From NCBI GenBank assembly GCA_963801355.1, contig CAWDEM010000004.1, positions 1,184,001-1,248,000 on the forward strand: a stretch of DNA of 64,000 bases, given 5' to 3'. The translations under genes were made by a program, and so were the position numbers. A model generated the notes under the pieces. It had not been told where the DNA came from, made no database searches, and was given only the letters and a program-made list of their open reading frames with translations. Source of the DNA: Ignavibacteriota bacterium. Lineage in GTDB: Bacteria; Bacteroidota; Ignavibacteria; UBA10030; UBA6906. Positions 18,620-41,545 of this stretch are shown one piece after another. Within the stretch, counting starts at the first letter, position 1; the number at the start of each line of letters is the position of its first letter.

Positions 18620-18694
18620 CGTTCGCGGGTGTGACCTGTATCCGGAGATGAAGGAAGCGTCAGCCACATCCGCAGTGCAGCGCGTCCGGCTATT

Positions 18695-23777: not shown

Positions 23778-26418
23778 CTACGTGAACTTCAACCCTAGCA
23801 CAGTCTCCCTGCCCGCCGGAAGCAAGAAATGCGAGTAGCGCGGGTACTTCTTTCCGGGAACCGGAGTGAGCGTCACGCGCTCTCTGGTGTCGAGTTTCAA
23901 TTCTGCTTCCATACCATCCGGAACACGCAGCCGCAGCTCACGATCCCCCCTTCGGCCGCGCGATCGAAAAACGATGTCACCGCGGACGGTAAATGCGGTC
24001 AGTTCCAGTTTTTCCAGGCTTCCCGGCCGGGGAGTGATAGTGCACCGTGCAAACCCGGGCGCCGTGGGCTTGATGCCGGCGAGACTCATGAATGCGACAT
24101 AGAGCGGCACAATTGCACAGTGGCTCCAGAGATCGCCCGAGTCGGGCTGTGCCGTCCAGTTCTCTGAGACGGTATTGTTCAGCAGTACGGAATCCATTCC
24201 CGCCCATCGGGTCCTGAAATCCTGGAGAATGACATCGGTGAGGTCCCCTTCCGCGAGAGCCCAATACCGCCAGCCGGCATTGGCCGGATACGAAAGGCCC
24301 ATCGCGGGCGGACAGTTGGCCAGTACGTTGAGCGAAGCCGCGGTGTCGTCGTCTGGACAGAGTCCGAAAAGGACTGCAGTTGCGAGTGATCGATCACACA
24401 TGCGTGTCTCGCCCTCCTCTTTTCGCCAGGGGAGGTTGTTCACGAAGAGGTGCTCGTTCTCACTCCAGAACGATGCCTGCGTGGCTTCGACGATCCTCCC
24501 GGCGAAGTCCCGGGCGAACGTGCCCCATGCGGCATGACCGGTGGCGAAGGCAAGGGGAGCGAACGCATGTCTGAGCATTGCTGCGGCATAGAGATTGAAC
24601 GCGCACTGTTTGTGCCGCTGCTGTTTGAAGGCGTTATGGTCGATCCAGACGTTGGGGAGACCCAGGTTCAGGACCGGCAACAGACCGTCGGGACCCACGA
24701 TGCGGTGGAGATAAGCCACGAATCGCTGCAATCTGACTGCGGCCTCCGCAACCTGGGCGACGTCCCCGGTGTAGAGATAGTGCTGATAGCAATCGAACCC
24801 GAATCCCACGGCATGATCCAGTAGCGGTCCCCAGGGGGTTAAATCGAGCTGGCGCTCCATCACGCGGGCAAGCCGATCGTAGGCGGGCCAACAATCGAAA
24901 AAGAAGCCGTCGGTCATCAATCCCTGTGAGAAGGTGCTTATGAACCGGGCGGGAAGGCGGGTCTCCCCGAGTGCGAGGTAGGCGCCATGCATTTGATGAC
25001 TGCCGTCGCCGCTGTATTGCTGCCGCTCGCGTCCCATGCCGTCGACGAATGTCTCCTGGGCGGAGTTGTACAGCGTGTTGACACATGCGTCCATGAGCCG
25101 CTGCAACGGTGGCTCGGACAGAGTAATCTCCGGGCGATGGGAGCCAGGGATAGAGCCGGCGGAGGACGCCGACCTGCGAGACGACAATGGTGCCTTCCGC
25201 ACCATGGACATGCAACTGCAGCCAGCGGAGGCTTTCGTAGTCGAAGCAACGGAATCGGTTCTCCCCCTCGCGACAGATGAATCGTGCCCACGCGTGAAAA
25301 TGTGTATTGAGAAGGGCCGGTCCGCCGGGCGAGTGCGCCTCGTGTACGAGGAGTTCAACGACCGTTCCCCGGGGGGCGCTGATAGTGAATTCCGGAAAGC
25401 CGACTATCTGCTCGGAGAACTCGAATGTAAGTGCAATTCCTCCATTCCGTGCAAGCTGGCATTGCCACGTTCCGGGAGGATTCTCGTATATGCCGGAGAA
25501 AAGAGTCTGCGTGTAGGCATCAGCCGGCGCCATCGCAAAATACTCTTCCGGCGGGCGTTTCCATATAATAGAAAAGGCTCTCGCGTAGACGGAGCGCCGG
25601 AACGGCGGCTTCGTGCAGTAGGGGAATCGATCGGGGCAGCAGACAGCAAATACTCCGGTCGGCGGTGGCATCCATCAGGTAATCGGGATAGCTGGAACAG
25701 ATCGGCGGCAGCGACGCGGGGCAGGGGAGAGGCAGGGCGGAGACCCATGCGTCATCGGGTACAAATCCGGGGCTGTCCCACCCGTGGGGGTGAAGACGCG
25801 CGTCGAACTCTTCCTGGAACGAGCGGAGATACCAGCGCTTGTACTGTCCCGGGGGCCAGCTGGTTGCCAGATGGCATTGCCACTGCTGATCGGTAGTGAG
25901 TGTCAGCGTCGATCCATCAGTACATTCTATAGAGAGAGTGCAGATGAATCCCGGCTTTCCGATGGGATGCGTGCCGTCGCCGTGGCCGTACGACAGTACG
26001 GTCACGGCAATGACGTTTTCGCCCTGTGTGAGTACTTCACCGAGATCGAGCGGATCGACTTCCATGCGTCGCGGATCCGCCGGGGCAGGCCCCCACTGGA
26101 CGCGGCGTCCGTTGACGGTGAGGAGATAGCGGCTGTCTGCAGCGATCCATCCGTCAGCCTTGCGTACCGGGAGCGGAAGAGGCGTACAGTACGCCGGAAG
26201 AGGATTACCGTATTGGGCAACGTCCGTGTCGAGGGATACCAGATCCAGGACGCAGGGGCGAGGTCGAGACGGTGGTGTTGTGGGGGAAGCTGGAGTGGCG
26301 TGCTGCCGGGCAGAGTATCCGGCGACGGTGCAGTGTCCGTCGTGGCGATGGATGGCATAAGTCCGAGGGCAGCGCCCGCGCCTGCAGTCTGTTTAAGGAA
26401 ATCACGTCGGTCGGTCAT
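23778..26418 (-). CDS. Tat-exported GH78 alpha-L-rhamnosidase-like protein (frameshifts near 26170, 25570 and 25150)
   Basis: Tat leader MTDRRDFLK; WIW...FRR, ADSRYLLTVNG, EEFDARL, DGMGRERQQYSGD and SHCA...GIKPTAPGF segments spread over four ORFs. Confidence 0.85.
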
Positions 26419-26440
26419 AGAGAAAGGCCGCTAATTGTTC

Positions 26441-26469
26441 AGTATGGAGGAAAGTGATGACAATGTCAA
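26441..26469 (-). promoter_or_regulatory. Sigma70-type promoter for the leftward operon
   Basis: Minus strand TTGACA (26469-26464), 17 bp spacer, CATACT (26446-26441). The palindrome TGACAATGTCA (26458-26468) overlaps the -35. Confidence 0.7.
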
Positions 26470-26501
26470 GACATGCGCGGTGCTCTTTTTGCACAAAGGA
26501 C

Positions 26502-26530
26502 TTGACAGGCACAAAAAAATGCTGTATACT
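26502..26530 (+). promoter_or_regulatory. Sigma70-type promoter for the rightward operon
   Basis: TTGACA (26502-26507), 17 bp spacer, TATACT (26525-26530). Confidence 0.8.
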
Positions 26531-26801
26531 CCAAAGGTAAAACACCATTCACATAGTAAAACAGCTGCGTGGTGAATACTGCCACCGTCGTTTCCCATCC
26601 TGTCTGTCGGCTGTTGGTGGTGTTGGTGTAATTCTCCTATCTTCTTTCTCAACGCGTTATTTCACAACTTGCGGCGTTCACTCGGTGATCTCCGGATCAT
26701 GTGGTAGAATCCTCAAGGGGAGTTCCCAACACGGATCGGTGGTGGCTTCTCACACTTCGTTTGCTTTTCCCACACAAACAACACTCCAAAGGAGGAGCGA
26801 C

Positions 26802-29767
26802 ATGAGGCAACTATGGTACAAGTTTCTGTCCGTAGCCTTGCTGACTGTTGTGGTGTCAGTAAGTCTCGTACTTGCCGGGAACGGTAAGATCTCCGGCACG
26901 GTCAAAGGAGCGGACGGTGCCGCAGTCGTGGGGGCGAACATCATCCTGGAAGGGACGATGATGGGAGGGTCGGCTGATGTCAACGGCAATTACTTTGTAT
27001 TGAACGTTCCGCCTGGAACCTACAGGGTGCGCGGATCTGCCGTGGGCTACACGCCGAAAGTGCTGACGGGCGTGCGCGTTGGGTCCGACCAGATCGTGAA
27101 CGTCAACTTCACGCTGGAATCGGAGACGGTCGGCATTTCGGAAGTCGTGATCGAAGCAACACGCCCGCCGGTGGACAAAAGCCAGACGTCGGCGAAGTCC
27201 ACAATGAGCGGTGACGACTTTACAACGCTGCCGATTTCAGACGTCTCGTCGCTGGTGGCCACGTCGGCCTCCACGTTCAAGGGATTCGTCCGTGGAGGGA
27301 AGACGTTCGAGACGAAGACGATTGTCGAAGGTATCGACATGACGGACCAGTTCTATGCTGCTGCCGCTGATGCCGGAGGTCTTGCATTCGGGTCCGGTGG
27401 CGGGTTCACTTCGGCCATGAGCTACAATGGCATCAACCGTCAGACAGAGAGCCAGCGGGCTTCTCTGGTCAACCTGAACGTCTCCGCCGTGGAGGAAGCG
27501 AACCTCGTGACGGGCGGTGTCGGCGCGGACTACAGCAACGCGACCGCAGGTGTGGTGGCGTATTCGCTCCGTGACGCCCGCGAGGCGTTCAATGGGCGTG
27601 TGGATGTGCGCGTCAGCCAGATGGGCGGTCTGCATTACAAAGGGCCGGACCTGTACTGGGACCAGGGCATCTACTATGCGGAGAAAGCTCGTCTATTGGC
27701 GAACGCATCGGCAATAGAACGGGAGAAGGGTGGAAGGTTCACGTGGACCCCGGACAAATACGAGACCGGCAAGCCGGAATACAAGGCGGAAGTGGCTCTC
27801 GGGTCGAAGTTCGGGGAAGGTGGAGGTGCCTACCTGACACTGGGGTGGTTCGATTCTCACGGGCGTCTTCCGGCTGAGTTTACCCGCCGGGCGAACGCCA
27901 CGCTGAAAGTGAACTCGAACCTCACTGATAATCTCAAACTCAGCTTCATCGGTCTTGTGGAAGATCGGGGCAAGCTGCTTGGATGGAAGAACCGCAGCTA
28001 CATGGACGACTTCCGCTATTTCCTGGAGGGTGTCCCGCGGTCGGACGGTGCCAACTTCACCGGTTCGGTCCGGCTGACGTACATTATCTCCCCCTCCTCG
28101 TATGCTGAGTTTCAGATCAGCGGCGTGACAGATAATTCCCGTCGCGGCTTTTCTGACGACAACAATGACGGCTGGTGCTGACCTGTATGAAGACGGTGAT
28201 TTCCTCGAATTCGCCGACACCGCCCAGGTGAACAGGTATCAGGCGAATAATTCGAACTCTCAAATGTGGAAATTCTTCTCTCCCTCGCCAAGGAATGAGT
28301 CGTACAGCGAGAGCGGAGTGACGATGTCCGGTGCTGCAAACTGGAAGATTGCCCGCCCCGGCATCTACTATGAGGATTTCACGAACAGCAACGTGACCGT
28401 GAAAGGTGACTTCACCAGTCAGGTCACACAAAACCATCAGCTCCGTGGCGGTCTGCAGGCCCGGATGCACAATTTCGACATGATCCGCCGTGCCGGCTTC
28501 ATCGGCGGCAACGTTTCTTCGTACAAGAACTACGTGGAAGAGACCTGGAACCTCAAGCCGAACGAATACGGCGGATACCTGCAGGACAGGATGGAATACG
28601 CCGGATTGATCATCAACCTCGGCTTCCGTGTGGACGCTCTTGATCTTGCTGCAGCCGACTGGGCGAATTTCTTCAAGCCCTACACGCTCGGTGACAGAAG
28701 AGGGAGGCGGCCAGGCATTGGTTTCGGTGCGCGGTCCGAATGCAAAGATGAAGTGGTTCTTCTCTCCGCGCCTGGGTGTGTCTCACCCCATCAGCGACCG
28801 GGCAGCCGTGTACTTCTCTTTCTCACAGCAGAACCAGTCGCAGCCCTTCTCAAGATTGTACACATACTACAACCAGTGGGGGAACCCCTCGCTTGCTCAA
28901 CTCCCGAGAGTGGACCAGGACCCGATCAAGTCCACCAGCTACGAACTCGGCGTGCAGTATGCACTCTTCGAGAACTTCAGTCTGGATGTGAACGCGTACT
29001 ACAAAGACATCCAGAATTACGGGTACACCACGATAGTCGTGACTCCGCGAAGCACTCTTGCAAAGCTCTACTACATCAACACGAATTTCGGCTATGCAGA
29101 CTCCCGCGGTGTGGAGTTGACGCTGCGGCGGAATGCCGTGCCGGTGACGGATTGGCTGACTGTGGGAGGGCGCGTAAGCTACGCATACAGTTACATAAAG
29201 CAGTCCGTGCCGCTGGGGACAAGAACGTCACCTCCTACGGATTGGCTGACAGCGCCGAATACGATGGCAGTTTGCCTTTTGATGACATCAAGTACTGGAA
29301 CACCATCGAGCAGCACGTGAATGGTGGCAACACCAGTCTGACGGGAGGCTACGATCGTGCGCACCGCGTCGGGTTCAATGTGTTCTTCCGCGTTCCGTAT
29401 GATATCATGTTGAGCGCCGTGGGGACGCTTCAGAGCGGATTCTACTACCCGCTCACGCTGGCGGATCCCCGTTCGCGTGAAGTTGGTGAAGGCCCGTGGA
29501 CCAAGAGGGTGGACCTGCGCCTCGAAAAGGGTTTCAAAATTGGAGCGAGTCGGTTCGCACTCTATGTCGACCTCATGAATGCATTCAACTGGACCAGCAT
29601 CGTTGCATACCAGCAGTCGTCGACTGCGACGGTCCCGCAGATCGCGTGGGAAAAGAGACGGGGATCCGACAGGTGGACCGACGATCCAGCGCTCGGTCAC
29701 TCAGGACGGATCGACCGTGTATGACGTCCCGCGTGAGATCTACTTTGGCGTGAGTTACCAGTTCTAG
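26802..29767 (+). CDS. TonB-dependent receptor with N-terminal carboxypeptidase-regulatory-like domain (frameshifts near 28175, 28690, 29215 and 29655)
   Basis: AAGGAGG RBS and signal peptide; GKISGTV...GANI...GNYFVLNVPPGTY; plug (VRGG, GGVGADYSNATAGVV); barrel segments YLQDRMEY, FSPRLGVSHPI, YELG and YYKDI; C-terminal PREIYFGVSYQF. Confidence 0.9.
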
Positions 29768-29816
29768 GGTCTCTCTTGGACCAACAACAACAATACGAAT
29801 CATGAGGGTTTGGAAA

Positions 29817-32328
29817 ATGAACATCATAAACTTTGGACGTAAGGTAGGGACCCTGGGACGAGGATTCGCCGTGCTCTGTCTCCTCGTTCTCGGGATGACC
29901 GTCGCCCTGTATGGTCAACCCCTGCAGAACGCAACGTCAGGTGTTATGATTCCGGCCAACGGTGATGGCGTGATGATTGGCGGGAACCTGTGGGAATCCT
30001 TCCAGGCGGCCAACACCGTGGGCCCCCAGTACTGGGAGGGAGCCAAGGAAATGACAGAACGATCGGTCAGATTGGGGAATTTTGACCGCTCGTGGTCAAC
30101 GCCGACCATCATGTGGCCGGGCGGATGGACCAACTCCAACATCTGGGGCATGGCGATGTACATCTCTACATACGATCCTGACCCCACATTCAACCCGGCC
30201 ACCATCGGTGGCGCCACCAACCCGTCGTACTACTCCACTTCCGGGAATAACTATGCGATGGCTGCTTATGCCAACAAGCCCGCAAAGACTCCTCCCCGTG
30301 TCGTGCTGGGAGCCGGTGACCCGGCCCGCGACTACAGACGCGAAACAAAGTGGGTGGATGCGACGAAACGGCATCATACGTTGTATGAAGCAGGGTGGCC
30401 CACGACGATCGGCGTGGACGTCAAGATTGATGTCCACCAATACAGCCTGCGCTGGAACGCGATGAGTGATTTCATCATCATGAACGTCACGATGACGAAC
30501 ACGGGGAATGTAGACCTGAACTGTGACGGCGTTGCCGAAAGGACAAACAACGTCATCAAAGCTCTCGCGCTGGTCATGGATTGCGAATTGGGCTTCTCCG
30601 CCCGATTGGGCACCAACGCCGGCCGTGGTTCCGCCTGGGGAATCTCCCGGCGCGTTGCAGGATACATCGGTGACAACGACCCGAAAGGGAACCCCTGGGC
30701 AACGACGGTGATCTACCCCGGGGAAAGCGGTCCCAATGTCAACGACATGGGGATCAATGACAACCCGTTGAGGTTCTACACGGATGTACAGAACGGATGG
30801 ACCTGGCTTGGTGCAAAGGATGCTACAGGCAACCCGAAGAAGACCATTTACGGGACTGATGCCGTCGGTACCGGAACCCAACGTGGTTGGTATACCTCAG
30901 CAGGTGTCGCTCGCGGCCTCGGGCTTGGGTACGGGGATCCGAGAGGCACACACATCCTGTTCCATGGGGACCTGGTACAAAGACGGCGGCAGGGGCCGGA
31001 GCTCATCGGCTCTCGATCTGAGCCCGAACCCGAATTTCTTTGCCTCCGGCACAACCGGCGACCCGACATCGTTCGTGCCAAAGGCTTCTCCATCGAGGCC
31101 GAACGGAGACCGCAAACTCCTGTCGCTGGAAGACCCTTCCGCATTCGAAGAAATCACGCATGAACCGAACTGGACAATCGGCTACACGCAGCACAACAAC
31201 TTCGACGGCAACACGTACCACGGCCTCGGGCCCTTCAGCCTCGCGGTAGGCGAGACGATGACGGTGACGTTCGTCGAGATGGGCGGATTCCGGTTGCAGG
31301 GAGTGCTCAATGCCCTTGCGGCAGCGCGCTATGTGTATGAAAACGGCGATGCCTTCCTGGACAACTATCCGGCCGTGCCGGAGATCCGGATCGACTCGAA
31401 GGCCCCGGGTATTCCCGTCCTTCGCTGGGACAACCGTGCAGAGAGCGGGCCGAATTTCGGCGGCTACAAGATCTACCGTGCGTCGCAGGCAGTCCCGATC
31501 GACTGGACAAAGACAGGCATGCGCGTGGTCGATGATTACTGGAAGAGCATGACTCCCGGACCGACACCTGAGAATCTGAAGGTGCCGATGAACCCCGATT
31601 TCAAGGCATTCGACTATATCGCGGGGAAGAGAGGTGTTCCGGACAGCTGGGGACCCTATGACCTGGTCAAGGTGATTCCGGCAGCCCAGGCCGGCAGCTT
31701 CGCCGACAACTCGGCCAGCGGGTACAATTATTCCTGGATGGACAATGAAGCACCATTCGGCTTCAAATTCTGGTACTATGTTGCCGCCTATACCAACACA
31801 GGGATGACTCTGAATTCTTCCTATGCTGGTTACAAGCCGGCCAGCACAGAATTCGTGGAGACAGCGAAAATAAACGAGAATGGCGCGTCAGGATTGTGGG
31901 CGAACACCTATCCATTCGCGTTCCTGAACGTGGATTGGCCAAAGACCGCCGAAGGTTTGAAGAATATGGGTGCCGCCATAGCAGTGGAACGGACCCCCAT
32001 GACGCTTGCCGATTTGCAGAACGGCGTGGTCAAGATAAGCTGCAAGCCCAATCCGTACAAAAAGAAGGCGCTCTTTGACAATGCTCTGGACGCGTCGGAC
32101 CACAAGGTGGTATTCTACAATCTGCCGACCGAGGCAAAAATCACTATCGTGGACGTGGCAGGACAGATAATACAGGAGCTGAACTTCAAGTCCACCGGCC
32201 CCAGCAACGGCACGATTTACTGGAACCTCTTCTCGAAGAACGGCATCGAGGTCGCCAGTGGACTGTACATCTGGGTGGCCGAGTATGAAGGCGGCAAGCA
32301 GGTCGGATATCTCACCATCATGCGCTGA
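29817..32328 (+). CDS. Large secreted protein with a T9SS-type C-terminal sorting domain (frameshift near 30958)
   Basis: Signal peptide; Fn3-like LRWD...FGGYKIYR...WYYVAAY segment; CTD KPNPY...FYNLP...ITIVDVAGQII...WNL...G.EVASGLYIW...VGYLTIMR. Confidence 0.8.
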
Positions 32329-32361
32329 CGATAACAACGTAAACACGAAAAGGCTTATGCC

Positions 32362-33381
32362 ATGAAAACATTCAACACGCTCATGCGTTGCGTCATGGTG
32401 GTCCTACTTGTGGCTGCCACGGCGGATGCACAGACCAACAAGGCCGGTCTGACGGGTGCTTCGTTTCTGAAGATCGACGTCGGTGCGCGGGAAGCGGCTC
32501 TTGCCACCGCCGTGACCGGCCTGACGGGAGACGCTAACCTGATGTTCTACAATCCGGCCGGCATCGCCCTGAAAAGTGATCAAATGGGGCAAGCATCATT
32601 CAACTACAACAAATGGATCGCTGACCTCAACCACAACAGCGCGGCGATCACCTACAACTGGCCGGACGTCGGGACCATCGGTGTGGGGGCTATCATGTTC
32701 GGAGTCTCGGACATCGTCGCTGACCGCGATGTCTACACTGACCCGGTCCTTGCAGCCATGCAGATTGACCAGAACACCTCGGCGACGTATAACTACCGCG
32801 ATATGGCTGTCCAGCTTTCCTACGCGCGGTACGTCATGGACAACTTCTCCCTCGGTCTGACGGTGAAGGGGATCTTCGAGTCTGTCGACGGGGAGAACAT
32901 CAGTGCATTCGCGGTCGACTTCGGTTCGGTCTACAACATCGGCGTCATGGACTGGACCATAGCCGCACGGTTCAACAACCTGGGCTCGGATCTGAAGTAC
33001 TATGATATCGGGTTCGGTCTCCCCATGTCGTTCACCATTGGCACGGCGATTACACCGGTGACCATGGAGAAGAGCAAGCTGACGGTGGCGGTAGATGCCG
33101 TGAAGACGCAGGACGGCCCGCAATACTTCTTTGCGGGTGGCGAATTGACGCTGGTCAACGTGATTGCTCTCCGCGGCGGCTACAAGTTCAACTATACGGG
33201 CACCGACGACGGCGGCACCAGCAGCAGGACGGCAATCAACAACACGATCGAAGGCTTCACGGCAGGCGCCGGTCTGATGGGCGACTTCGCGGGCATGAAG
33301 ATCGGCGTGGACTACGCGTACACGAAGATGGACTTGCTGGACAACGTGCACCGCTTCTCGTTGAAGATTGGCTTGAAGTAA
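32362..33381 (+). CDS. PorV/PorQ-like (UPF0164) outer-membrane beta-barrel
   Basis: Signal peptide; FLKIDVGAREAAL, FYNPAG, AFAVDFG, NLGSDLKY, ALRGGY and VDYAY...HRFSL motifs. Confidence 0.88.
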   Translation: MKTFNTLMRCVMVVLLVAATADAQTNKAGLTGASFLKIDVGAREAALATAVTGLTGDANLMFYNPAGIALKSDQMGQASFNYNKWIADLNHNSAAITYNWPDVGTIGVGAIMFGVSDIVADRDVYTDPVLAAMQIDQNTSATYNYRDMAVQLSYARYVMDNFSLGLTVKGIFESVDGENISAFAVDFGSVYNIGVMDWTIAARFNNLGSDLKYYDIGFGLPMSFTIGTAITPVTMEKSKLTVAVDAVKTQDGPQYFFAGGELTLVNVIALRGGYKFNYTGTDDGGTSSRTAINNTIEGFTAGAGLMGDFAGMKIGVDYAYTKMDLLDNVHRFSLKIGLK

Positions 33382-33425
33382 CCCCGGATGAGCACCCGAC
33401 CTCCGAACAAAGGCGGGTGATTGTC

Positions 33426-33574
33426 CCACCGTCCTGAGTGGAGCAAAAAGACGGTGGTCTTTGAGAGGGGGGTAGTCTCCTTGCGGGAGTCACGCGAACT
33501 ATTGAAACGTGTACCCTGAGGTGATTACCCCCCCCTTTCATTATCAATTGTGGAGGTGGATCCACCATCCACAA
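33426..33574 (+). other. Structured intergenic region (three stem-loops)
   Basis: CCACCGTC/GACGGTGG hairpin (33426-33457); multi-branched stem 33462-33540; palindrome TTGTGGA-GGTGGATCCACC-A-TCCACAA (33548-33574). Confidence 0.55.
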
Positions 33575-33601
33575 CGGATATGACCGAGAGAGGATCCCAT
33601 C

Positions 33602-34652
33602 GTGCTGACCACGTCGAAAGCACCCCTGCCCCTGCTCCCCACAACCGTCATCGGCAGCTATCCGTTTCCCAGATGGCTTGAAACCGTCCGCGATCTCGGC
33701 GCCCAGGGAAAGCTGACGCACGCCGATGTTGTCGAAGCCCACGATGCCGCCGTGCGGTCGGCCATCATGGACCAGGAATTCGCCGGCGTGGATATCATCA
33801 CCGACGGTGAGCTGCGACGGGAAACCATGGTGAACTTCTTCTCCGCCCGGATTCACGGGTTTGACATGTCCGGCAAACTCAAACCGATCGGGAATCTGGA
33901 TCCCTCAATCCAGATGAAAGATCCCGTTGTGCGCGACAAGGTGCGACGACTGAACGGCCTTGGCATGGATGACCATTTTGCATTCCTGCAAGCACACGCA
34001 ACGCACGCGACCAAAGTGTGTGTGACCGGTCCTCAAATGCTCGCCAAGAGGGCAACCAATGAGTACTATCCGTCGGACAAGGAGCTCGTGTTCGACCTCG
34101 CCGATGTGCTGAACGTGGAGCTGAAGAACCTTGTCGGGGCGGGGTGCAGGTTCATTCAGATAGACGAACCGGTGTGGGTCGGGTATCCCGCCGATATGCC
34201 ATGGCTCGTCGAGTCGTTCAACAGGCTGGTCGACGGGGTCAATGCCAAAATCGCCCTGCACGTCTGCTACGGCAACTATCAGCTGAAAAGACTCTTCACA
34301 GGGGAATATGCACAACTCTTTCCGGCGATTCTTGACACCCGGGCTGACCAGATCAGCATGGAGTTCGCCGTATCGGACGGTGCGGGACTGGATCTGTTCA
34401 AGAAATACAAAACCGACAAGGAGGTCGTGGTCGGCGTGATTGACGTGAAATCCCCGGACATCGAATCTGCCGGCGACTGTCGCGCAGCGGATCAGGACTG
34501 CGCTGGAATTCATTCCGGAGGCCCGGATGTACATTTCGCCCGACTGCGGCATGAAGTTCATGCCGCGCGACAGGGCATTCGGAAAACTGAAGGCCATGGT
34601 TGAAGGCGCGAAAGTAGTTCGTCAGGAGTTGATAGGAATCGGAGGAGCCTAG
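33602..34652 (+). CDS. Cobalamin-independent methionine synthase II family (single-domain MetE-like) zinc enzyme, frameshift near 34470
   Basis: TTVIGSYP, DIITDGELRR, IQIDEP, LHVCYG (HxC) and SMEF. The shifted frame supplies ISPDCG...KLKAMV and the stop at 34652. Confidence 0.88.
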
Positions 34653-34659
34653 GCCCGGC

Positions 34660-36863
34660 ATGCCCCAGCGGAGCGAACTCACGGTACGGCAGGCAGCACG
34701 CTGCGCTTCGCCGGATTGTCATCCGGCAATCGGATCCCGCTGTGTGCCGGACAGTCGCAGAAGCGTGGCGCGAGAGCCTCTCGCCGGAGGCGGAGATTGC
34801 CGTCAGTGCAGAACCTCCTGCGGCTGAGGCAGGCACACTCGTCATTCGGGTGGGTGGCCCACGACAGTCTCCTGCAGAGGGGAAACTGGTCTGGCCGGCG
34901 AATCACGCAGTGGAATTGCAGGCAACACACGCCACCGCTCTCTTCCCGCTTTTCTCCATGATCGCAGAGGACTGGATTGACAGCCCGGTCCCAGGGCTGG
35001 CGGAACCCTTGACGTACCGTCCGGCCTTCCCCTGGTTGCGCAATCTCAATGACTTTTTCGTCGGCAGTCTGCGAACGGCACGGGGATTTGACCGCGAGGC
35101 CTTCGTGCGACAACTCGCACGGGCGGGATTTACGCATGTGACGGTCAACGGTCTGGGGGGACCCCGTCCATACGAAAGCAGCCCTCCCGGCGACGTATAC
35201 CACTGGTTCTATGATTATAGTCCCGACCTCGATCAGTTTGTCGACAGTGAACTCGTGCGGGGGTACTATCCTCGCGGAGTACGTGCGTGCAAATCGGGAC
35301 GCGCTGCGTGCCAATGCAGCGCTTGCCAGAAAGTACGGAGTGATTCCCGGTCTCCACATCAATTCCCCTCGGTCGATGCCGGAGGAATTCTGGCACCGCT
35401 TTGGCTATCTGCGGGGTGCCAGAGTGGATCATCCCCGCGAGACCCTGCGCCCCCGGTATACACTTGCCATGGCGCACCCGGCGGTGCAGAAACATTACCG
35501 TGAATTGATCCGGAATATCATGACTGAGGTTCCGGACCTTGGCTTCATCCATGTCTGGACCAATGACAGCGGTGCGGGATTTGAATTCGTGAGTTCTTTG
35601 TATGCCGGGCGCAATGGAGGTCCGTACTTGCTGCGAGAATGGAAGGGCGACGAGGCGATTGCACGTGCGGCAGCGGGCAACGTTATGACGTATTACCGCC
35701 TCCTGGCGGAGGAAGGGCGGCGGGTGAATCCCGCATTCCACCTTATATGCGATCTCGGTCCGTTCTTCGCCGAGCGCAAGTACATCATTCCGGACTTGGG
35801 TAACGGCATCGATGCGGGCGATTTCGCGTTCTTTGAGGAGCAACCCGGAGGTCCGGGGCGCGAAGCCATCGAAGCCACGGGAGCACAGGTGCATCTCAAG
35901 CTGGATCTGTGCGACAACAACGTGCTCGGAGTGCCGGCGCCCGTTCTTGTGTATGAAAGGTTGCGCGATGCGTTCCGCAGCGGGGCACGCGCAACCTTGA
36001 CGAACATTGCACCTCCGTCGCTGGTCCCGTACGACATCAATGGTGAGGTGGTGCGGGCCTTCCAGGCGAACCATGACAAGCCGCCGGAGCCGCTTCTGGA
36101 GCGCTGTGCGCGCCAGTGGGCGGGTGAGATGCATATGGCCCGGCTGCTGCGCGTCTGGTCGCTGTCCGACGCAGCTGTCCGCGCGTACCCACCGACTATC
36201 CCCATGAGCACGTTCGGGTTTCCATGGTTTCGCCTCTGGGTGCGTCCCTTCGTGCCAAACATCGACGCCATCCCTGAAGGGGAACGGGCCTACTACGAAA
36301 AGTTCCTCCTGGCAACGTTCAACAATCCGGCACGTGTCGATCTCAACAATGACATGATGTGGAACTTTCTGACCGTCGAGCAAGCAGGCGGGCTGCGGCA
36401 GGAGATTGATCAGAAGGTGCTTCCCCCGCTCACCGGGGCGATCCTGCTCTGTCACGAGCTTCTGCAGGGAACGCACGCCACGGACCAGGTGCCCCCTGTG
36501 TTTCCAGATCTGCAGGACCGGCTTCGCGCCGCACGGTGCTACTACACCACGATGCGCAACACGGTTGCATGGACGGAATCGGTGCACGGCTATCTTCAAG
36601 CCACGACAGAGACGGAGAAAACGCAGTTCAGATCTCTCTGTGATGCAATGGTTGCCGGAGAACTCGCGAACACCCGGGACCTTCTCACGCTCTGGCAGCA
36701 TTCGGCAGGATCCTGGATGCCGGTATCCGCGCTCGGCGAATCCCTGCATCTGTACGGTGAGAACTTCGGTGACCTCCTGGGGCACAAGATTGCGTTGATG
36801 GAGCGCCATGTCCATGATGAGCCGTATATCGATCCCCAGTACATGTGGCGGATGAAAAACTGA
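34660..36863 (+). CDS. Cytoplasmic hypothetical protein, possibly TIM-barrel glycosidase-like (frameshifts near 34665 and 35272)
   Basis: ORFs 34742-35503 and 35211-36863 join at RGYYP/AEYVRAN; ARAGFTHVTVN, PAVQKHYRELI and WTNDSGAGF segments; no signal peptide seen. Confidence 0.6.
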
Positions 36864-36897: not shown

Positions 36898-37698
36898 ATG
36901 TTGTACGACGACACCTTTCCATTGCTTGAAGAGCAGATACGCTTCTACGAGGAGAACGGATATATCCAGCTGCACAACGTTTTGACGCGTGAAGAAGTCG
37001 TCGCACTGCGGTCGGCTGTGGAGGTCGCCGCCGAGGACCGGAAACGCCTGCAGGAGAACTGGGGGCCCAGGGGAGATGAAGGATATGCCAAGGTCTTCCT
37101 GCAGATGGTGAATGTCTGGGAGCGGTATCCCGCCATTGAAGAGTACACGCTCAGTCCGCGTATCGGGGACATCGCCCGTCAGCTCACCCGGTCGCCGTAC
37201 GTCCGCCTCTGGCATGACCACGCGTTGATCAAGTACCCGAAAGACAGCAAGGCGACGGCGTGGCACCAGGACAAGGTCTACTGGCCGATGAAGGAAAACG
37301 GGGCGCTCTCGTGCTGGATGGCGCTCGACGATGTCACCGTGCAAAACGGGTGCATGTGGTTCCTCCCCGGTTCGCATGTGCTGGGTCCGCTGGATCCTGT
37401 CGATCTGGGCACGGCAGACGAACAGAGTCTGCTGCGTGTGCTTCCGGAATCCATGAAGCATGTCCGTCCGGTGGTCATGGAGATGAAAGCCGGGAGCTGC
37501 ACATTCCATCACGGACTGACGTTCCACTATGCCGGGCCGAATGTTACGGATGGACCCCGCCGCGCGATGGTAACGATCTTCATGCCCGCGGGCACGCATT
37601 ACAGGAAGCAAGAACACATCGTCGGCGACAGGGGAAACCTTGCGGATGGCGAGGAATTCCACGGACCGCTTTTCCCGTTTATCGGGCGGGGGATGTAA
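36898..37698 (+). CDS. PhyH-family Fe(II)/2-oxoglutarate dioxygenase
   Basis: FYEENGY, WHQD, WMALDD...NGCM..PGSH, and HHGLTFH...N...PRR; GAGGAG RBS. Confidence 0.92.
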   Translation: MLYDDTFPLLEEQIRFYEENGYIQLHNVLTREEVVALRSAVEVAAEDRKRLQENWGPRGDEGYAKVFLQMVNVWERYPAIEEYTLSPRIGDIARQLTRSPYVRLWHDHALIKYPKDSKATAWHQDKVYWPMKENGALSCWMALDDVTVQNGCMWFLPGSHVLGPLDPVDLGTADEQSLLRVLPESMKHVRPVVMEMKAGSCTFHHGLTFHYAGPNVTDGPRRAMVTIFMPAGTHYRKQEHIVGDRGNLADGEEFHGPLFPFIGRGM

Positions 37699-37705
37699 TA
37701 CCCTC

Positions 37706-39295
37706 ATGACGACGAGAGTCACATCATTGCATACCGGCGATCCCCGGCTGGACGAGCTGCTTCCCCGGATCAAGGGCTTTCTGGATCAGGATGTGTCGGA
37801 AATGAACGCGCTGGGTTCGCGCGTGCGGGGGTACCGGTCACCGGACGGACCGAGTCTCTGGCTCCGGGATCACACAGACATGATGCGCGGGTTCCGGTAC
37901 TGGGAGCGCGACATGACGAGCATGATCGAGCACTTCGCCGAGACACAGACCGCGCGCGGGTGGCTCTTCGACTATTTCACGCTCACTCCCGACAAACTTC
38001 CCTGTGAGCGGGAGAACTGGGCAAAGTATGTCAGGGTGCCGGTGGAAGCGGACGTCGAGTACAGGTTCATCAACGGCATCTACCTGGCCTGGCAGGCGAC
38101 CGGGGACGACGGGTGGCTGCGACGCATGCTGCCGCACGCCGAGCGGGCCCTTGCGTACATTTTCAACGATCCCTGGCGGTGGGATCCGCGGCACAAGCTT
38201 GTCAAACGTGCCTACACGATCGACACATGGGACTTTGACTACACCGCCGGGCGGCATCCATGGCTGAACTTCCAGATTACCGATGAGACATTCTGGGGGA
38301 TCATGCACGGCGACAACTCGGGCTATTACGAAGCCTGCCTGCGGCTTGCCGTGCTCCTCGACAGGGTGCGGATGAACAAGCGAGCGGCATACTGGCGGCG
38401 CTTTGCTGCCGGTCTTCGCCGCCGGACAAATGCTCTCTGTTTCAACGGGCGGTTCTACACCCATCATGTGCCCCTTGTGCCGGTCACGGTTCCCGGGGTT
38501 GACACAGGCGCGCAGCTCAGCCTGAGCAACCCGATGGACATCAACCGCGGTCTGGCGACCCACGCAATGGCCACCGCGATCATCAAGGAATATCGGAACC
38601 GCGGAAAGGCGACCGGCGCGTTTGCGGAATGGTTCAGCATCGACCCGCCGTTTCCGGACGGGATCTACGGTGACGAGAAGATCGTCGCGGGGGCCTACTG
38701 CAACGGCGGGATCATGCCGCTGGTGGGCGGCGAACTCGCCCGGGCGGCATTCGAGCACGGATGTGAATCCTACGGCGTCGAGCAGCTGTACAAATACCAT
38801 GAACTGACAAAAGCCAACGAAACCTACCTCTGGTATTTCCCGGATGGCCGTCATGCCACCCGCGAAACCAGCACCAGTCCGGAGGCCTATCCTACGGACG
38901 GGTGGGGTTCGTCCGCCATGCTGTACGCATTGATCGAAGGGCTCGCTGGTGTTGTCGACGCCGGGGCATGCTTCCGGCGCGTGAAGCTTTCTCCGCGATG
39001 GTTGGCTGCGGGGCGGGATGATGCCGAGGTGGTGGCGGCATACGGTGTCAGCGGAGCTTCATGCAGCTATCAGTATCGTCATGATGCCGCACGGTCCATG
39101 ATGACATTGGAGGTGACCGGCATCGGAGAGGTTCAGCTGCACCTGTTGTTGCCAAAGGGTGCCCGTGTTGCCGGTGTCCGGGTGAACAGGCGGGCCGTCG
39201 CGGCACGTGCTGCCACCGTTGAACAGAGTTCGTATGCCGACGCCGGTTTTGCACTGCGGGGCAATGCACGTGTTGAAGTGTCCTACAAAGGATAA
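37706..39295 (+). CDS. Cytoplasmic (alpha/alpha)6 glycosidase-like protein
   Basis: LWLRD, PVEADVEY, WQATGDD.WL, YCNGGIMPLVGG and WGSSAMLYALIEGLAG six-hairpin features. Confidence 0.7.
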   Translation: MTTRVTSLHTGDPRLDELLPRIKGFLDQDVSEMNALGSRVRGYRSPDGPSLWLRDHTDMMRGFRYWERDMTSMIEHFAETQTARGWLFDYFTLTPDKLPCERENWAKYVRVPVEADVEYRFINGIYLAWQATGDDGWLRRMLPHAERALAYIFNDPWRWDPRHKLVKRAYTIDTWDFDYTAGRHPWLNFQITDETFWGIMHGDNSGYYEACLRLAVLLDRVRMNKRAAYWRRFAAGLRRRTNALCFNGRFYTHHVPLVPVTVPGVDTGAQLSLSNPMDINRGLATHAMATAIIKEYRNRGKATGAFAEWFSIDPPFPDGIYGDEKIVAGAYCNGGIMPLVGGELARAAFEHGCESYGVEQLYKYHELTKANETYLWYFPDGRHATRETSTSPEAYPTDGWGSSAMLYALIEGLAGVVDAGACFRRVKLSPRWLAAGRDDAEVVAAYGVSGASCSYQYRHDAARSMMTLEVTGIGEVQLHLLLPKGARVAGVRVNRRAVAARAATVEQSSYADAGFALRGNARVEVSYKG

Positions 39296-39298
39296 TAC

Positions 39299-41545
39299 AT
39301 GAAACGACGCGATTTTCTCAGGACACCGGCCGTAAGTCTCCTGGTTCCCGCTGCCGGTGCACTTTCCCTTGACGAGATGCTTGACTTTGATCGGCCGCAG
39401 GGCGGAGCCTCCCAGGAAGCCCGAAAGCATCCGCAACGGCTCCACCAGGATTTCTCGACCTACCAGCCGGGCATCGAATACTTCTTCATTGGCAACGGTG
39501 AGCTGCAGGCTGTTGTGCAGTACATGCCCGACCGTTCGGGAGATCTTCCCCAGACGTTTCTCGGCATGACACTCATGGATGCCGAAAGATTCTCGCGGAA
39601 ATGGAGCACGTATCTCTTTCACCCCGAGCGGGGGTTTGAAAATTCCAGGCTTTCTGTCACGATCGAGAACAACAGCTACTGGGTACTTCCGGACACGCTT
39701 GTCGAGGTGAAGTGGAAGATGGTCGAGTCGGTCCCCGTGATTTCCGCGCTCTGGAAGGCGGGCGTCATGATGGTCGAAGAAGAGATCTATGTCCCCTCGG
39801 AAGGGGCGTACCTGATCCGCCAGGTAACGTTGCGCAACACCGGCGCGACAGCCCTGCCCGCAATTGTCCGGCTGCCGCTCGTTCCCAATTTCACGGTGTT
39901 CGATGACATCGGGACCGACCCGAAGAAAAGCATCGCATTCGGGCGCGGGTATACCGAGATCACACTTTCCTGTCTGGACGGCGACGCAAAGGCCACCGGA
40001 CGCTATGAAGTGTCGACGCAGCTCGAAGCCATCGCGCCGGGCAAGGAAGCTGTCGCCCGGTTTGTGTACGCCATCCGGCCGGGCACTCCGCTCCTCCGGG
40101 CGGCTGATATGCCGAAGTTGTGGAAGAAGACGGTCGCCTACTGGAAGTCGAAGCCGGTCCTCTCAGCGGGGAATGAGCGGCTCGACCATCTTTACGCCGT
40201 TTCCCGCAGCGGTCTGAAAGCGCATCTCGGCCGGAGCGGCAAACGCGACAGCGGATACTGGCAGTACAATATGGAATGGGTACGTGACGACGTGATGATG
40301 ATCCAGGGGTTGTCGATGGCCGGCATGCATGAGGAAGCACGGGCCGTGCTCCTCAAAAACCTCTCGCGGAACGTTGGTCCGGACGGATGCCTGGTCGAAT
40401 CAAGCCGCTGGTCCGGCACGGACCTTACCGAGCTGGATCAGAACGGGCAGCTGTTGTATGCGGCATGGCTCTATCTCTGCTGGTCCGGCGACCGTGATCT
40501 CGTCAAGAAGTACTGGCCGCAAATTGTGCGGGCCGGTGACTATCCGCTGCAGGACGTATTCCGCGGACGTCGCACACGGCTCCTGCGCAACAAGAGGGAA
40601 TTCTGGGAACGGAGCGATCGCGAAGGTGTTGAAGACGGCTTCGAGCTGGCGTATCAATTCTGGGTGATGATGGGGTTGGAACGGGGGACCGAACTCGCCC
40701 GGGCAATGGGTGAAAGCGCCACGGCAAATCGTTGGGCGGCTGCCTCCGCCGAATTGAAACAGATCATGTTCCACGACCCCACATTCCGGTTCATCGAAGA
40801 CGGACATTTGATCAAGAGACGAACGCTTGATGGGCGGTGGCAGCGGTACATGATACCCCCGGACCGCACGACCATGCCCCCGGGATCCCCGCTTGCCCTG
40901 AACGAAAAACCTGACTGTGAACCGGACAGTGCCGACATCTATCCGATCATCTATGCGTATGTCGATCCGAAGGGCGAGATTGCACGCGCCACGCTCCGGG
41001 ACATGGACCTATTGTGGAATCAACAATGGGACTTTGGCGGGTATGCGCGCTACAATACGACGAGCGAGCCCGATCCGCCGGCTCCCTGGCCGATTGCCTC
41101 GATCCTGATGGCGCGGGCTGCAGTCGAGATGGGAGATGACGAACGTGCATGGCGTGCCATCGACTGGGTCAGCACAATTCACGGAGGCAAGTCCGGCGGA
41201 TGGTTTGAGCGGTACGGCCCGAGTATCACACCGCCGGCTCCGCCGGTCTCCGTGGTTGGCTGGACGTGGGCGGAGGTGGTTGTGCTGATGGTCCAGCACA
41301 TACTCGGATTCCGTCCCGATCTCGACGGCATCGTCATCCGGCCGCGTCTCATCCGGGGCGTCGATCGTCTGCACACGGCCTTCACCGTTCGCGGCTCGAC
41401 CTACGACGTGACCGTGAGACGCGCAACCGAAGCATCGGCGACGGTGAATGGAGTGAAGGCGGAGGTCAAGGACGGCGCACTGAGGCTTGTGCACCGCAAA
41501 AAAGGAAGTCAAACGGATATTATTCTGGAGGTCCCGGGTCGATGA
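39299..41545 (+). CDS. Tat-exported six-hairpin glycosidase (GH15-like)
   Basis: MKRRDFL Tat motif; YNMEWVRD, ELDQNG, EFWER, GGYARY...PWPIA and WTWAE motifs. Confidence 0.72.
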   Translation: MKRRDFLRTPAVSLLVPAAGALSLDEMLDFDRPQGGASQEARKHPQRLHQDFSTYQPGIEYFFIGNGELQAVVQYMPDRSGDLPQTFLGMTLMDAERFSRKWSTYLFHPERGFENSRLSVTIENNSYWVLPDTLVEVKWKMVESVPVISALWKAGVMMVEEEIYVPSEGAYLIRQVTLRNTGATALPAIVRLPLVPNFTVFDDIGTDPKKSIAFGRGYTEITLSCLDGDAKATGRYEVSTQLEAIAPGKEAVARFVYAIRPGTPLLRAADMPKLWKKTVAYWKSKPVLSAGNERLDHLYAVSRSGLKAHLGRSGKRDSGYWQYNMEWVRDDVMMIQGLSMAGMHEEARAVLLKNLSRNVGPDGCLVESSRWSGTDLTELDQNGQLLYAAWLYLCWSGDRDLVKKYWPQIVRAGDYPLQDVFRGRRTRLLRNKREFWERSDREGVEDGFELAYQFWVMMGLERGTELARAMGESATANRWAAASAELKQIMFHDPTFRFIEDGHLIKRRTLDGRWQRYMIPPDRTTMPPGSPLALNEKPDCEPDSADIYPIIYAYVDPKGEIARATLRDMDLLWNQQWDFGGYARYNTTSEPDPPAPWPIASILMARAAVEMGDDERAWRAIDWVSTIHGGKSGGWFERYGPSITPPAPPVSVVGWTWAEVVVLMVQHILGFRPDLDGIVIRPRLIRGVDRLHTAFTVRGSTYDVTVRRATEASATVNGVKAEVKDGALRLVHRKKGSQTDIILEVPGR

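Follow-up and report, generated by a model that had tools for sequence, protein, structure and literature searches.

We analysed a 64,000-nt window of the genome of an Ignavibacteriota bacterium (contig C4, positions 1184001–1248000; the assembly comprises 4.8 Mb in 8 contigs and is 100% complete by marker genes). Three adjacent genes on the + strand, at positions 26802–33381 of this window, encode a TonB-dependent receptor, a secreted partner protein with a candidate type IX secretion system (T9SS) C-terminal domain (CTD) and an outer-membrane barrel of the PorV/PorQ family. The gaps between them measure 35–50 nt (receptor to partner) and 33 nt (partner to barrel). An earlier annotation made without database searches, which we call the sequence-only reading, had placed a TonB-dependent receptor, a secreted CTD protein that is not a lipoprotein and a PorV-like barrel in this order behind a promoter, and all three genes were recovered at these coordinates and on this strand.

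The receptor gene, assigned by Pfam and by alignment to the intact 978-residue orthologue L017, extends from its ATG to its stop codon over 26802..29767 (+ strand) and is interrupted by four frame breaks. An N-terminal CarboxypepD_reg domain was detected with 61.2 bits in Pfam, and the 22-strand TonB barrel domain PF00593 scored 78.8 bits on the window piece 28628–29320 and 76.4 bits on L017 (cut-off 27). Together, five pieces of the window cover residues 1–978 of L017 at 49–73% identity. The plug domain PF07715 was absent from the matches at E ≤ 0.01, both for the broken window pieces and for L017; as L017 does align with the SusC model over the part that corresponds to the plug (residues 29–481), the plug of this receptor is probably divergent. 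The receptor lies outside the SusC/RagA family: the TIGR04056 cut-off of 368 bits was missed by the window pieces (53.6 and 33.7 bits) and by four intact orthologues (49.1, 53.1, 88.1 and 69.2 bits).

The partner gene occupies 29802..32328 on the + strand, starting at the ATG at 29802, or at 29817 according to the alignment with the intact 840-residue relative P0002. Its product of about 837 residues is 65–70% identical to P0002, in two frames, and begins with a signal sequence that is not followed by a lipoprotein cysteine. The protein matched 0 Pfam families, and no catalytic family of Pfam or NCBIfam was found. It belongs to a family of hypothetical proteins of ~820–860 residues, with 261 matches at E ≤ 0.001, and these relatives carry no Pfam domain other than a C-terminal tail domain in some of them. 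The fold was taken from a model of P0002, which is 70% identical to the window protein over the CTD part; built from 26 aligned sequences, the model is all-β, with a predicted local distance difference test (pLDDT) score of 82.4 and a predicted template-modelling (pTM) score of 0.84. By this model, the signal sequence would be followed by a β-supersandwich, an FN3 domain and the CTD. Residues 46–516 resemble the non-catalytic N-terminal β-supersandwich of GH65, GH15, GH94 and GH116 enzymes (Z 11–13.5, 227–274 residues aligned, root-mean-square deviation (rmsd) 3.2–4.0 Å in the VIA wide search), and residues ~517–729 correspond to an FN3 domain (Z about 9). The VIA wide structure search matched no catalytic domain, and Foldseek returned only weak partial matches of the whole model to the PDB (best E 8e-5, TM at most 0.22). 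The fold searches therefore do not recognize the partner as an enzyme; a known catalytic fold was the outcome that the sequence-only reading had named as fatal to its proposal. Look-alikes of the partner body in the ESM Atlas fall into clusters from Rhodothermota, Bacteroidota, Calditrichota and Balneolota and serve as leads only. Variants of 1346–1366 residues (P0122, P0123 and L011) join the partner body (profile positions ~12–720) to a different, longer C-terminal part.

The C-terminal segment of the partner (32011..32325, + strand) represents a special ('class-2') type of T9SS CTD, which we propose to be a docking handle; it scored 102.9 bits on the class-2 profile, for which this open reading frame (ORF) was itself a seed. 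The segment matched the PorZ C-terminus at E 1.9e-6 when the whole piece was used and at E 9.3e-8 with the last 105 residues, and the L017 orthologue of the partner reached TIGR04183 at 24.2 bits, above the cut-off of 23. In the P0002 model, the CTD part superimposes on the PorZ CTD (5m11) with Z 11.1 and rmsd 2.3 Å over 89 aligned residues at 25% identity, on the PorU CTD (6za2) with Z 8.9 over 88 residues and on the mirolase CTD (8qb1) with Z 8.8 over 73 residues. The partner C-terminus is thus predicted to adopt the T9SS CTD fold, a seven-strand Ig-like β-sandwich as in solved CTDs. The sole PDB match of the partner-family profile was likewise the PorU CTD (E 3.4e-4). Mean column identity is 69% for the CTD in 33 orthologues; for the full-length protein it is 51%, measured in another set comprising 26 relatives.

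When the class-2 profile was run over the C-termini of 8908 ORFs of the same genome, 17 ORFs scored 80–137 bits and the next one 39.8 bits; that 14 of these 17 had served as seeds, leaving 3 independent, is a point against the interpretation developed below. The three non-seed ORFs (80–94 bits) all lie in loci with a receptor and a barrel. About 100 ORFs with ordinary CTDs score below 39.8 bits, and PorU's own CTD is second best among the ORFs outside the class (36.5 bits). Of 16 special CTDs of this genome that were compared, 14 match the PorZ C-terminus, 8 match TIGR04183 (E ≤ 0.01) and 6 match the PorU C-terminus. For CHU_C (type B, PF13585), the window CTD gave no Pfam match and 5 of the 16 gave weak ones (best E 4.7e-5). 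Fourteen other middle proteins were compared with the window family, and 12 of them resemble it at E ≤ 0.001, through their last ~100 residues only (E 1.5e-5 to 4e-10); the two that do not are a 402-residue ORF of a locus with an odd gene order and a C-terminally truncated piece. Against 1.84 billion cluster representatives, the partner-family profile had 81 matches at E ≤ 1e-30, comprising the family itself, its fragments and a few tail-only matches, and 1526 clusters (50% identity) at E ≤ 1e-10; among the best 150 of these 1526, most of those ranking below roughly 80 family members or fragments match by the tail alone, in proteins of 520–1380 residues. Two cassettes (C4:1280887-1284105 and C8:1173467-1176745) encode an extra 8-residue tail, EQQILDRY, after the special CTD, and the ORFs of ~1020–1030 residues beside them resemble Ser/Thr kinases, as judged by N-terminal sequence alone.

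The barrel gene (32362..33381, + strand) is unbroken and encodes 339 residues with a signal sequence. The PorV/PorQ family model NF033709 matched it with 174.6 bits over residues 31–336 (cut-off 90), and both equivalog cut-offs were missed, with 58.9 bits on the PorV model NF033710 (cut-off 250) and 91.4 bits on the PorQ model NF033711 (cut-off 220). In the PDB, its profile matched solely PorV of F. johnsoniae (6h3i_F, E 1.2e-17). We modelled the complex of barrel residues 24–339 with the C-terminal 110 residues of the partner, using a 33-row alignment for each. The interface score ipSAE was 0.92 (0.89, 0.92 and 0.92 in the individual runs), whereas the best of three controls reached 0.01; contact agreement between runs was at least 96% and the partner pLDDT at least 82. 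Of 157 solved complexes, 116 attain the pass mark applied here, as do 2 of 215 mismatched pairs. The contact between CTD and barrel is thereby predicted by the model, in a PorV-like binding mode that may reflect recall. Interface conservation was not used as evidence, for it is modest in the CTD, where 19 of 40 interface residues and 18 of 70 others are invariant or nearly so, and negligible in the barrel (16 of 53 vs 62 of 263). 'PorV2' was rejected as a published name, as the apparent literature match proved to be an artefact of a superscript citation.

A scan of species-representative genomes yielded 245 relatives of the partner, from which 66 distinct loci were kept; the genomes of these relatives carry Ignavibacteria-type labels. 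Upstream of the partner, 43 of 47 assessable loci have a receptor homologue; downstream of it, 50 of 57 have a barrel homologue. Of the 41 loci that could be assessed on both sides, 38 contain all three genes. Thirty-three loci have three unbroken ORFs, separated by gaps of 0–130 nt and 10–125 nt. This arrangement is not due to chance, and the conserved gene neighbourhood for which the sequence-only reading had suggested a survey was indeed found.

In the genome of the window, 17 loci combine a receptor with a middle protein and a PorV-like barrel, such that 17 special CTDs face 17 receptor-linked barrels. The middle proteins of these cassettes belong to several unrelated families, those of the other 16 having unrelated bodies. 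Two loci have variant gene orders (C8:570695-577042 and C8:2871366-2881711): one runs barrel, receptor, CTD protein, and in the other the CTD protein lies three genes upstream of receptor and barrel. Across the 14 unbroken paralogous cassettes of this one genome (three with broken genes were excluded), Mantel correlations were 0.67 for barrel and CTD, 0.77 for barrel and receptor and 0.74 for CTD and receptor, each with p = 1e-4. Co-phylogeny had been put forward in the sequence-only reading as a test of the association; the paralogous cassettes do evolve as units, although correlation alone does not show contact. In other classes, 13 of 13 special CTDs from 8 genomes, picked from the top of the match list, have a receptor upstream and a barrel 90–190 nt downstream. 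The pairing of CTD and barrel and the conservation of the cassette are well supported computationally.

SusD was searched for as PF07980 and PF14322, with 0 matches in the whole genome of the window and a positive control in B. thetaiotaomicron; the absence of a SusD-like lipoprotein first remarked for the window therefore holds genome-wide. We then compared the distribution of SusD (PF07980) and the special tail (E ≤ 1e-12) in 200 genomes sampled across the phylum. The genome of the window has 0 SusD matches and 17 special tails. Within the window's class or closer, SusD was found in 12 of 48 genomes, with 1–2 matches each, and the special tail in 47 of 48, with 1–16 each, while in other classes the figures were 99 of 152 and 66 of 152. 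Among individual families, the figures were 11 of 12 for SusD and 1 of 12 for the special tail in f15 and 13 of 13 and 0 of 13 in f20; two others have both systems, f27 (SusD in 33 of 33, special tail in 25 of 33) and f17 (4 of 4 for each). Strict complementarity with SusD was rejected on account of these latter two. With both systems present in f27 and f17, and SusD encoded by 12 of the 48 genomes from the class of the window or closer, the cassette runs in parallel to SusD, dominating where SusD is rare, and does not strictly replace it.

A T9SS may occur in Ignavibacteriota, according to the literature (PMC11285876). The genome of the window encodes SprA (846.7 and 221 bits in a single 2353-residue frame), the PorU sortase (980.3 bits) and, beside PorU, a candidate housekeeping PorV (C8:981559-982575) that scored 241.4 bits, just under the cut-off of 250. 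GldK, GldL, GldM and GldN were not detected with TIGRFAM and Pfam models trained on Bacteroidia, models for which the controls mostly gave no positive, so divergent homologues are possible: the GldM models TIGR03517 and PF12081 and the GldL model TIGR03513 had no match, GldK scored 29.1 bits (cut-off 350) and GldN 19.7 bits (cut-off 85.9). This gap counts against the interpretation developed below, and the T9SS core on which the sequence-only reading relied is confirmed in part, by SprA, PorU and the PorV beside it. The same genome holds more than 100 CTD-bearing ORFs together with SprA, PorU and PorV, yet none of the four Gld proteins was detected; the alternatives are strong divergence of the motor and ring proteins or a T9SS that is energized differently.

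We hold with moderate confidence that the triad is a modular outer-membrane uptake cassette in which a retained CTD is plugged into a private barrel beside the receptor. The TonB-dependent receptor would import a substrate, probably glycan-derived. The partner would be a non-catalytic, all-β surface protein that crosses the inner membrane through Sec and the outer membrane through the T9SS translocon. Its special CTD, probably uncleaved, would dock on the extracellular face of the barrel encoded directly behind it, in the way that PorQ carries the CTD of PorZ and PorV that of PorU. Acting as a private membrane anchor, the barrel would thus keep the partner near the receptor for substrate capture and hand-over. 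The docking contact is a model prediction, and we infer that the CTD is retained, that the partner lies near the receptor and that it binds substrate and hands it over. The sequence-only reading, which is partly supported, had proposed a SusD replacement held in place by a PorV paralogue specific to the locus: the pairing of CTD and barrel stands (17 of 17 cassettes, co-diversification, ipSAE 0.92 vs 0.01), but strict replacement does not, given the families f27 and f17 with both systems. More tentatively, and with less than even confidence, we extend this to a general statement: the special CTD may be a non-cleaved docking tag, and private PorV-like barrels may couple unrelated surface proteins to TonB-dependent receptors as a third general uptake architecture, which would predominate among Ignavibacteria and related lineages.

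Several observations weigh against this interpretation. Structures of PorV with a bound substrate CTD have been solved (8gl6 and others), and the passing score of the complex may be recall; moreover, close cousins of the true partner also pass, and the score is silent on any preference over the housekeeping PorV. The window CTD remains under the TIGR04183 cut-off of 23, with 16.9 bits for the whole piece and 20.9 bits for the last 105 residues. En-bloc duplication of linked genes explains the co-diversification and the gene order equally well. The partner can also be encoded alone: at L021, L022, L023, L027 and L028, a full-length paralogue has neither a receptor nor a barrel gene next to it. 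These solo paralogues, as well as L026, carry the same CTD and occur in genomes that also have a complete triad; they adjoin the same MetE-like, PhyH and 544-residue genes as are found downstream of the window triad.

Other explanations of the triad have to be set against the same data. The barrel could be a private export carrier only, which takes the CTD from the SprA pore, after which the CTD is cleaved and the partner is released or linked to lipopolysaccharide, with the receptor linkage reflecting co-regulation. The barrel's only PDB relative is indeed the shuttle PorV, the genome has a PorU sortase, the CTD is type-A-like (24.2 bits for an orthologue on TIGR04183, which 8 of the 16 special CTDs also match) and the complex model is equally compatible with transient binding. 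We nevertheless regard this as unlikely, as a housekeeping PorV lies beside PorU and ~100 ordinary CTD ORFs do without a barrel of their own, the special CTDs are closer to the retained CTDs of PorZ and PorU than to cleaved ones and are more conserved than the protein bodies, and the strict receptor link (17 of 17 here and 13 of 13 elsewhere) goes beyond what co-regulation demands. A different role for the partner itself, that of an unrecognized surface enzyme (a β-sandwich lyase or hydrolase) that cuts the polymer outside the cell and is SusG-like and not SusD-like, appears very unlikely. It is suggested by weaker fold matches that include β-sandwich polysaccharide lyases (Z 8.9–9.1; rhamnogalacturonan lyase 1nkg at 8.9, chondroitinase 9o3q at 9.1 and 5no8 at 9.0) and make an enzymatic role possible, by the many invariant charged residues of the family, with Arg, Asp, Glu and Lys throughout the N-terminal domain, and by the same company of enzyme genes even where the partner is encoded alone. 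The best fold matches, however, are the N-domains of GH65, GH15, GH94 and GH116, which are non-catalytic and come here without the catalytic barrels, no catalytic family of Pfam or NCBIfam matches, and the unrelated bodies in the other 16 cassettes fit a generic binding or scaffold function better than a single chemistry. PorV has been called a FadL homologue (PMC12578637), but a channel of FadL type that takes a hydrophobic or amphipathic substrate and is unrelated to the CTD would hardly account for a barrel that scores above the PorV/PorQ family cut-off, for the one-to-one numbers of barrels and special CTDs or for an interface score of 0.92 against 0.01 for the best control, and we consider it extremely improbable.

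The locus could also be dead in this strain, the receptor and partner being recent pseudogenes among 17 redundant cassettes. Compared with L017, the receptor runs through frames 3, 1, 2, 1 and 2, which places four breaks near 28177, 28687, 29211–29221 and 29656, and comparison with P0002 places a single break near 30959 in the partner. We checked these sites in contigs from 4 public runs of 4 studies, 90–99% alike, none of which is the source sample. At all five sites the contigs differ from the window. The window is one base longer than the contigs of 3 runs at 28177/8, of 2 runs at 28687/8 and of a single run each at 29656 and 30959, and net two bases longer than those of 1 run at 29211–29221; at 30959, a loose end from a further run is likewise one base shorter than the window. 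Parts of the stretch that these contigs leave uncovered carry no information. Five breaks within 2.8 kb, with extra bases that sit outside homopolymer runs, count in favour of real frameshifts in this strain, as do two other cassettes of the genome with broken receptor and barrel genes; the intact versions come from reads of related strains, and the best run contains 0.20 of the sampled words. None of the runs is registered as RNA. On the other side, the aligned pieces of receptor and partner are free of in-frame stops, those of the receptor keep 49–73% identity to the orthologue, the window has extra bases at each of the five sites, and unrelated neighbour genes are broken too (near 34468, 35272 and 16380), as in an error-prone assembly. 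Because the aligned pieces lack stops and breaks also affect neighbour genes, the five triad breaks are most likely assembly errors, and the locus is therefore probably functional. We rate decay of the locus as distinctly unlikely, and it would have no bearing on what the cassette is. The three breaks outside the triad affect the MetE-like gene (~34468), the homologue of a 731-residue protein (~35272) and the C-terminus of an 816-residue protein at 16217–18667 (~16380), and the assembly seems to contain many single-base errors.

Upstream of the triad, a sigma-70-type promoter-like site (TTGACA-17 nt-TATACT, 26502..26530, + strand) lies ~270 nt 5' of the receptor ATG. It was recognized by consensus match only, with 11 of 12 positions matching, and fits the strong promoter that had been called there before; promoter-like sites number 6 in 26000–35000 versus 3.1 ± 1.7 in shuffled sequence. 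Positions 26441–26530 hold two such sites back to back (11 of 12 on the + strand and 10 of 12 on the − strand), in the intergenic region from which the triad operon and the upstream glycosidase genes diverge. No Rfam family matched at E ≤ 1 in 26300–26900, which includes the ~270-nt leader of the receptor gene.

Downstream, also on the + strand, follows a MetE-like gene (33602..34634) with the catalytic domain of cobalamin-independent methionine synthase (PF01717, 124.7 bits), which in two frames is 91% and 81% identical to its counterpart at L017. This is the usual fourth gene of the operon: of 50 assessable barrels, 31 have a MetE-like gene no more than 2.6 kb downstream, and for 28 of these the distance is at most 450 nt. 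Between the window and loci L002–L063, this gene shows 62–91% identity versus 35–60% for the triad proteins. This short gene is an odd companion of an uptake cassette and may offer a clue to the substrate. The next genes, all on the + strand, encode a homologue of a 731-residue protein without a family match (from 34676), a PhyH dioxygenase (36898–37698), a homologue of a 544-residue protein without a family match (37640–39295) and a GH15-like protein (39299–41545), all of them conserved downstream genes. Homologues were counted in 29 of the 66 loci for the 731-residue protein, 19 for the PhyH-like protein, 25 for the 544-residue protein and 12 for a 622-residue protein, figures that include many loci ending before these genes. 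The wider window contains GH47, GH38, rhamnosidase-like and sugar-transporter genes. Judging from this gene content, a glycan-derived substrate, and with it the term 'glycan locus', is plausible.

Surface-partnered TonB-dependent uptake is understood almost wholly from the SusCD systems of Bacteroidia. Full-text literature searches, with supplements outside their scope, found no description of the triad, and for a gene cluster of Ignavibacterium the passages of a paper that were examined mention only a TonB-dependent transporter (PMC8861115). If major groups of that superphylum, among them Ignavibacteria, Kryptonia and relatives labelled Latescibacterota, use T9SS parts for this purpose, the absence of SusD in a metagenome annotation would not mean the absence of uptake resembling that of polysaccharide utilization loci. 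A second general function would then fall to the T9SS, namely to set up permanent machinery in the outer membrane by means of retained CTDs, and the CTD–barrel pair would be a candidate for a portable surface-display connector. The question can be tested directly in cultured Ignavibacteria.

Among known systems, PorZ–PorQ and PorU–PorV of P. gingivalis are a close parallel, since both place an exported surface protein on a barrel of the PorV family; PorZ and PorU keep their CTDs and sit on PorQ and PorV in the T9SS attachment complex, as stated in a review (PMC10202324), and the special CTDs match the C-termini of precisely these two proteins best. The pair described here differs in lying outside the secretion machinery, in being multiplied 17-fold with bodies of several families, in its constant link to a receptor and in a barrel that stays under both the PorQ and the PorV equivalog cut-offs. 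Cargo and its own PorV-like barrel also stand side by side in systems with type B CTDs and PorP/SprF-like barrels, such as SprB–SprF of F. johnsoniae. The type B pairs described so far act on gliding adhesins, not on receptors. They differ further in that weak CHU_C matches were found in 5 of the 16 special CTDs and none in that of the window, and in that the barrels here belong to the PorV/PorQ family. The same review offers the hypothesis that cognate PorV-like barrels shield CTDs from cleavage (PMC10202324). In the BamG–BamH pair of the β-barrel assembly machinery (BAM) of Bacteroidota, a surface protein is bound by the extracellular loops of a FadL/PorV-like barrel that lies beside another large barrel (PMC12578637); this is a different machine with no CTD, likened here by description alone.

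A further comparison is that with SusC/SusD (RagA/RagB). In both systems a receptor with a CarboxypepD_reg domain is followed directly by the gene of a surface partner at the head of a substrate-specific locus, and both occur in many paralogous copies per genome, 17 in the present case. SusD is a helical tetratricopeptide-repeat lipoprotein, whereas the partner described here is predicted to be all-β, has no lipoprotein cysteine and would depend on T9SS export and barrel anchoring. The receptor is not of the SusC family (49–88 bits on TIGR04056, cut-off 368), and contact between receptor and partner is a proposal here. The barrel adds an obligatory third gene. Should the proposal be correct, the cassette would constitute a third architecture beside stand-alone receptors and SusCD, with the CTD–barrel pair as its portable and evolvable connector.

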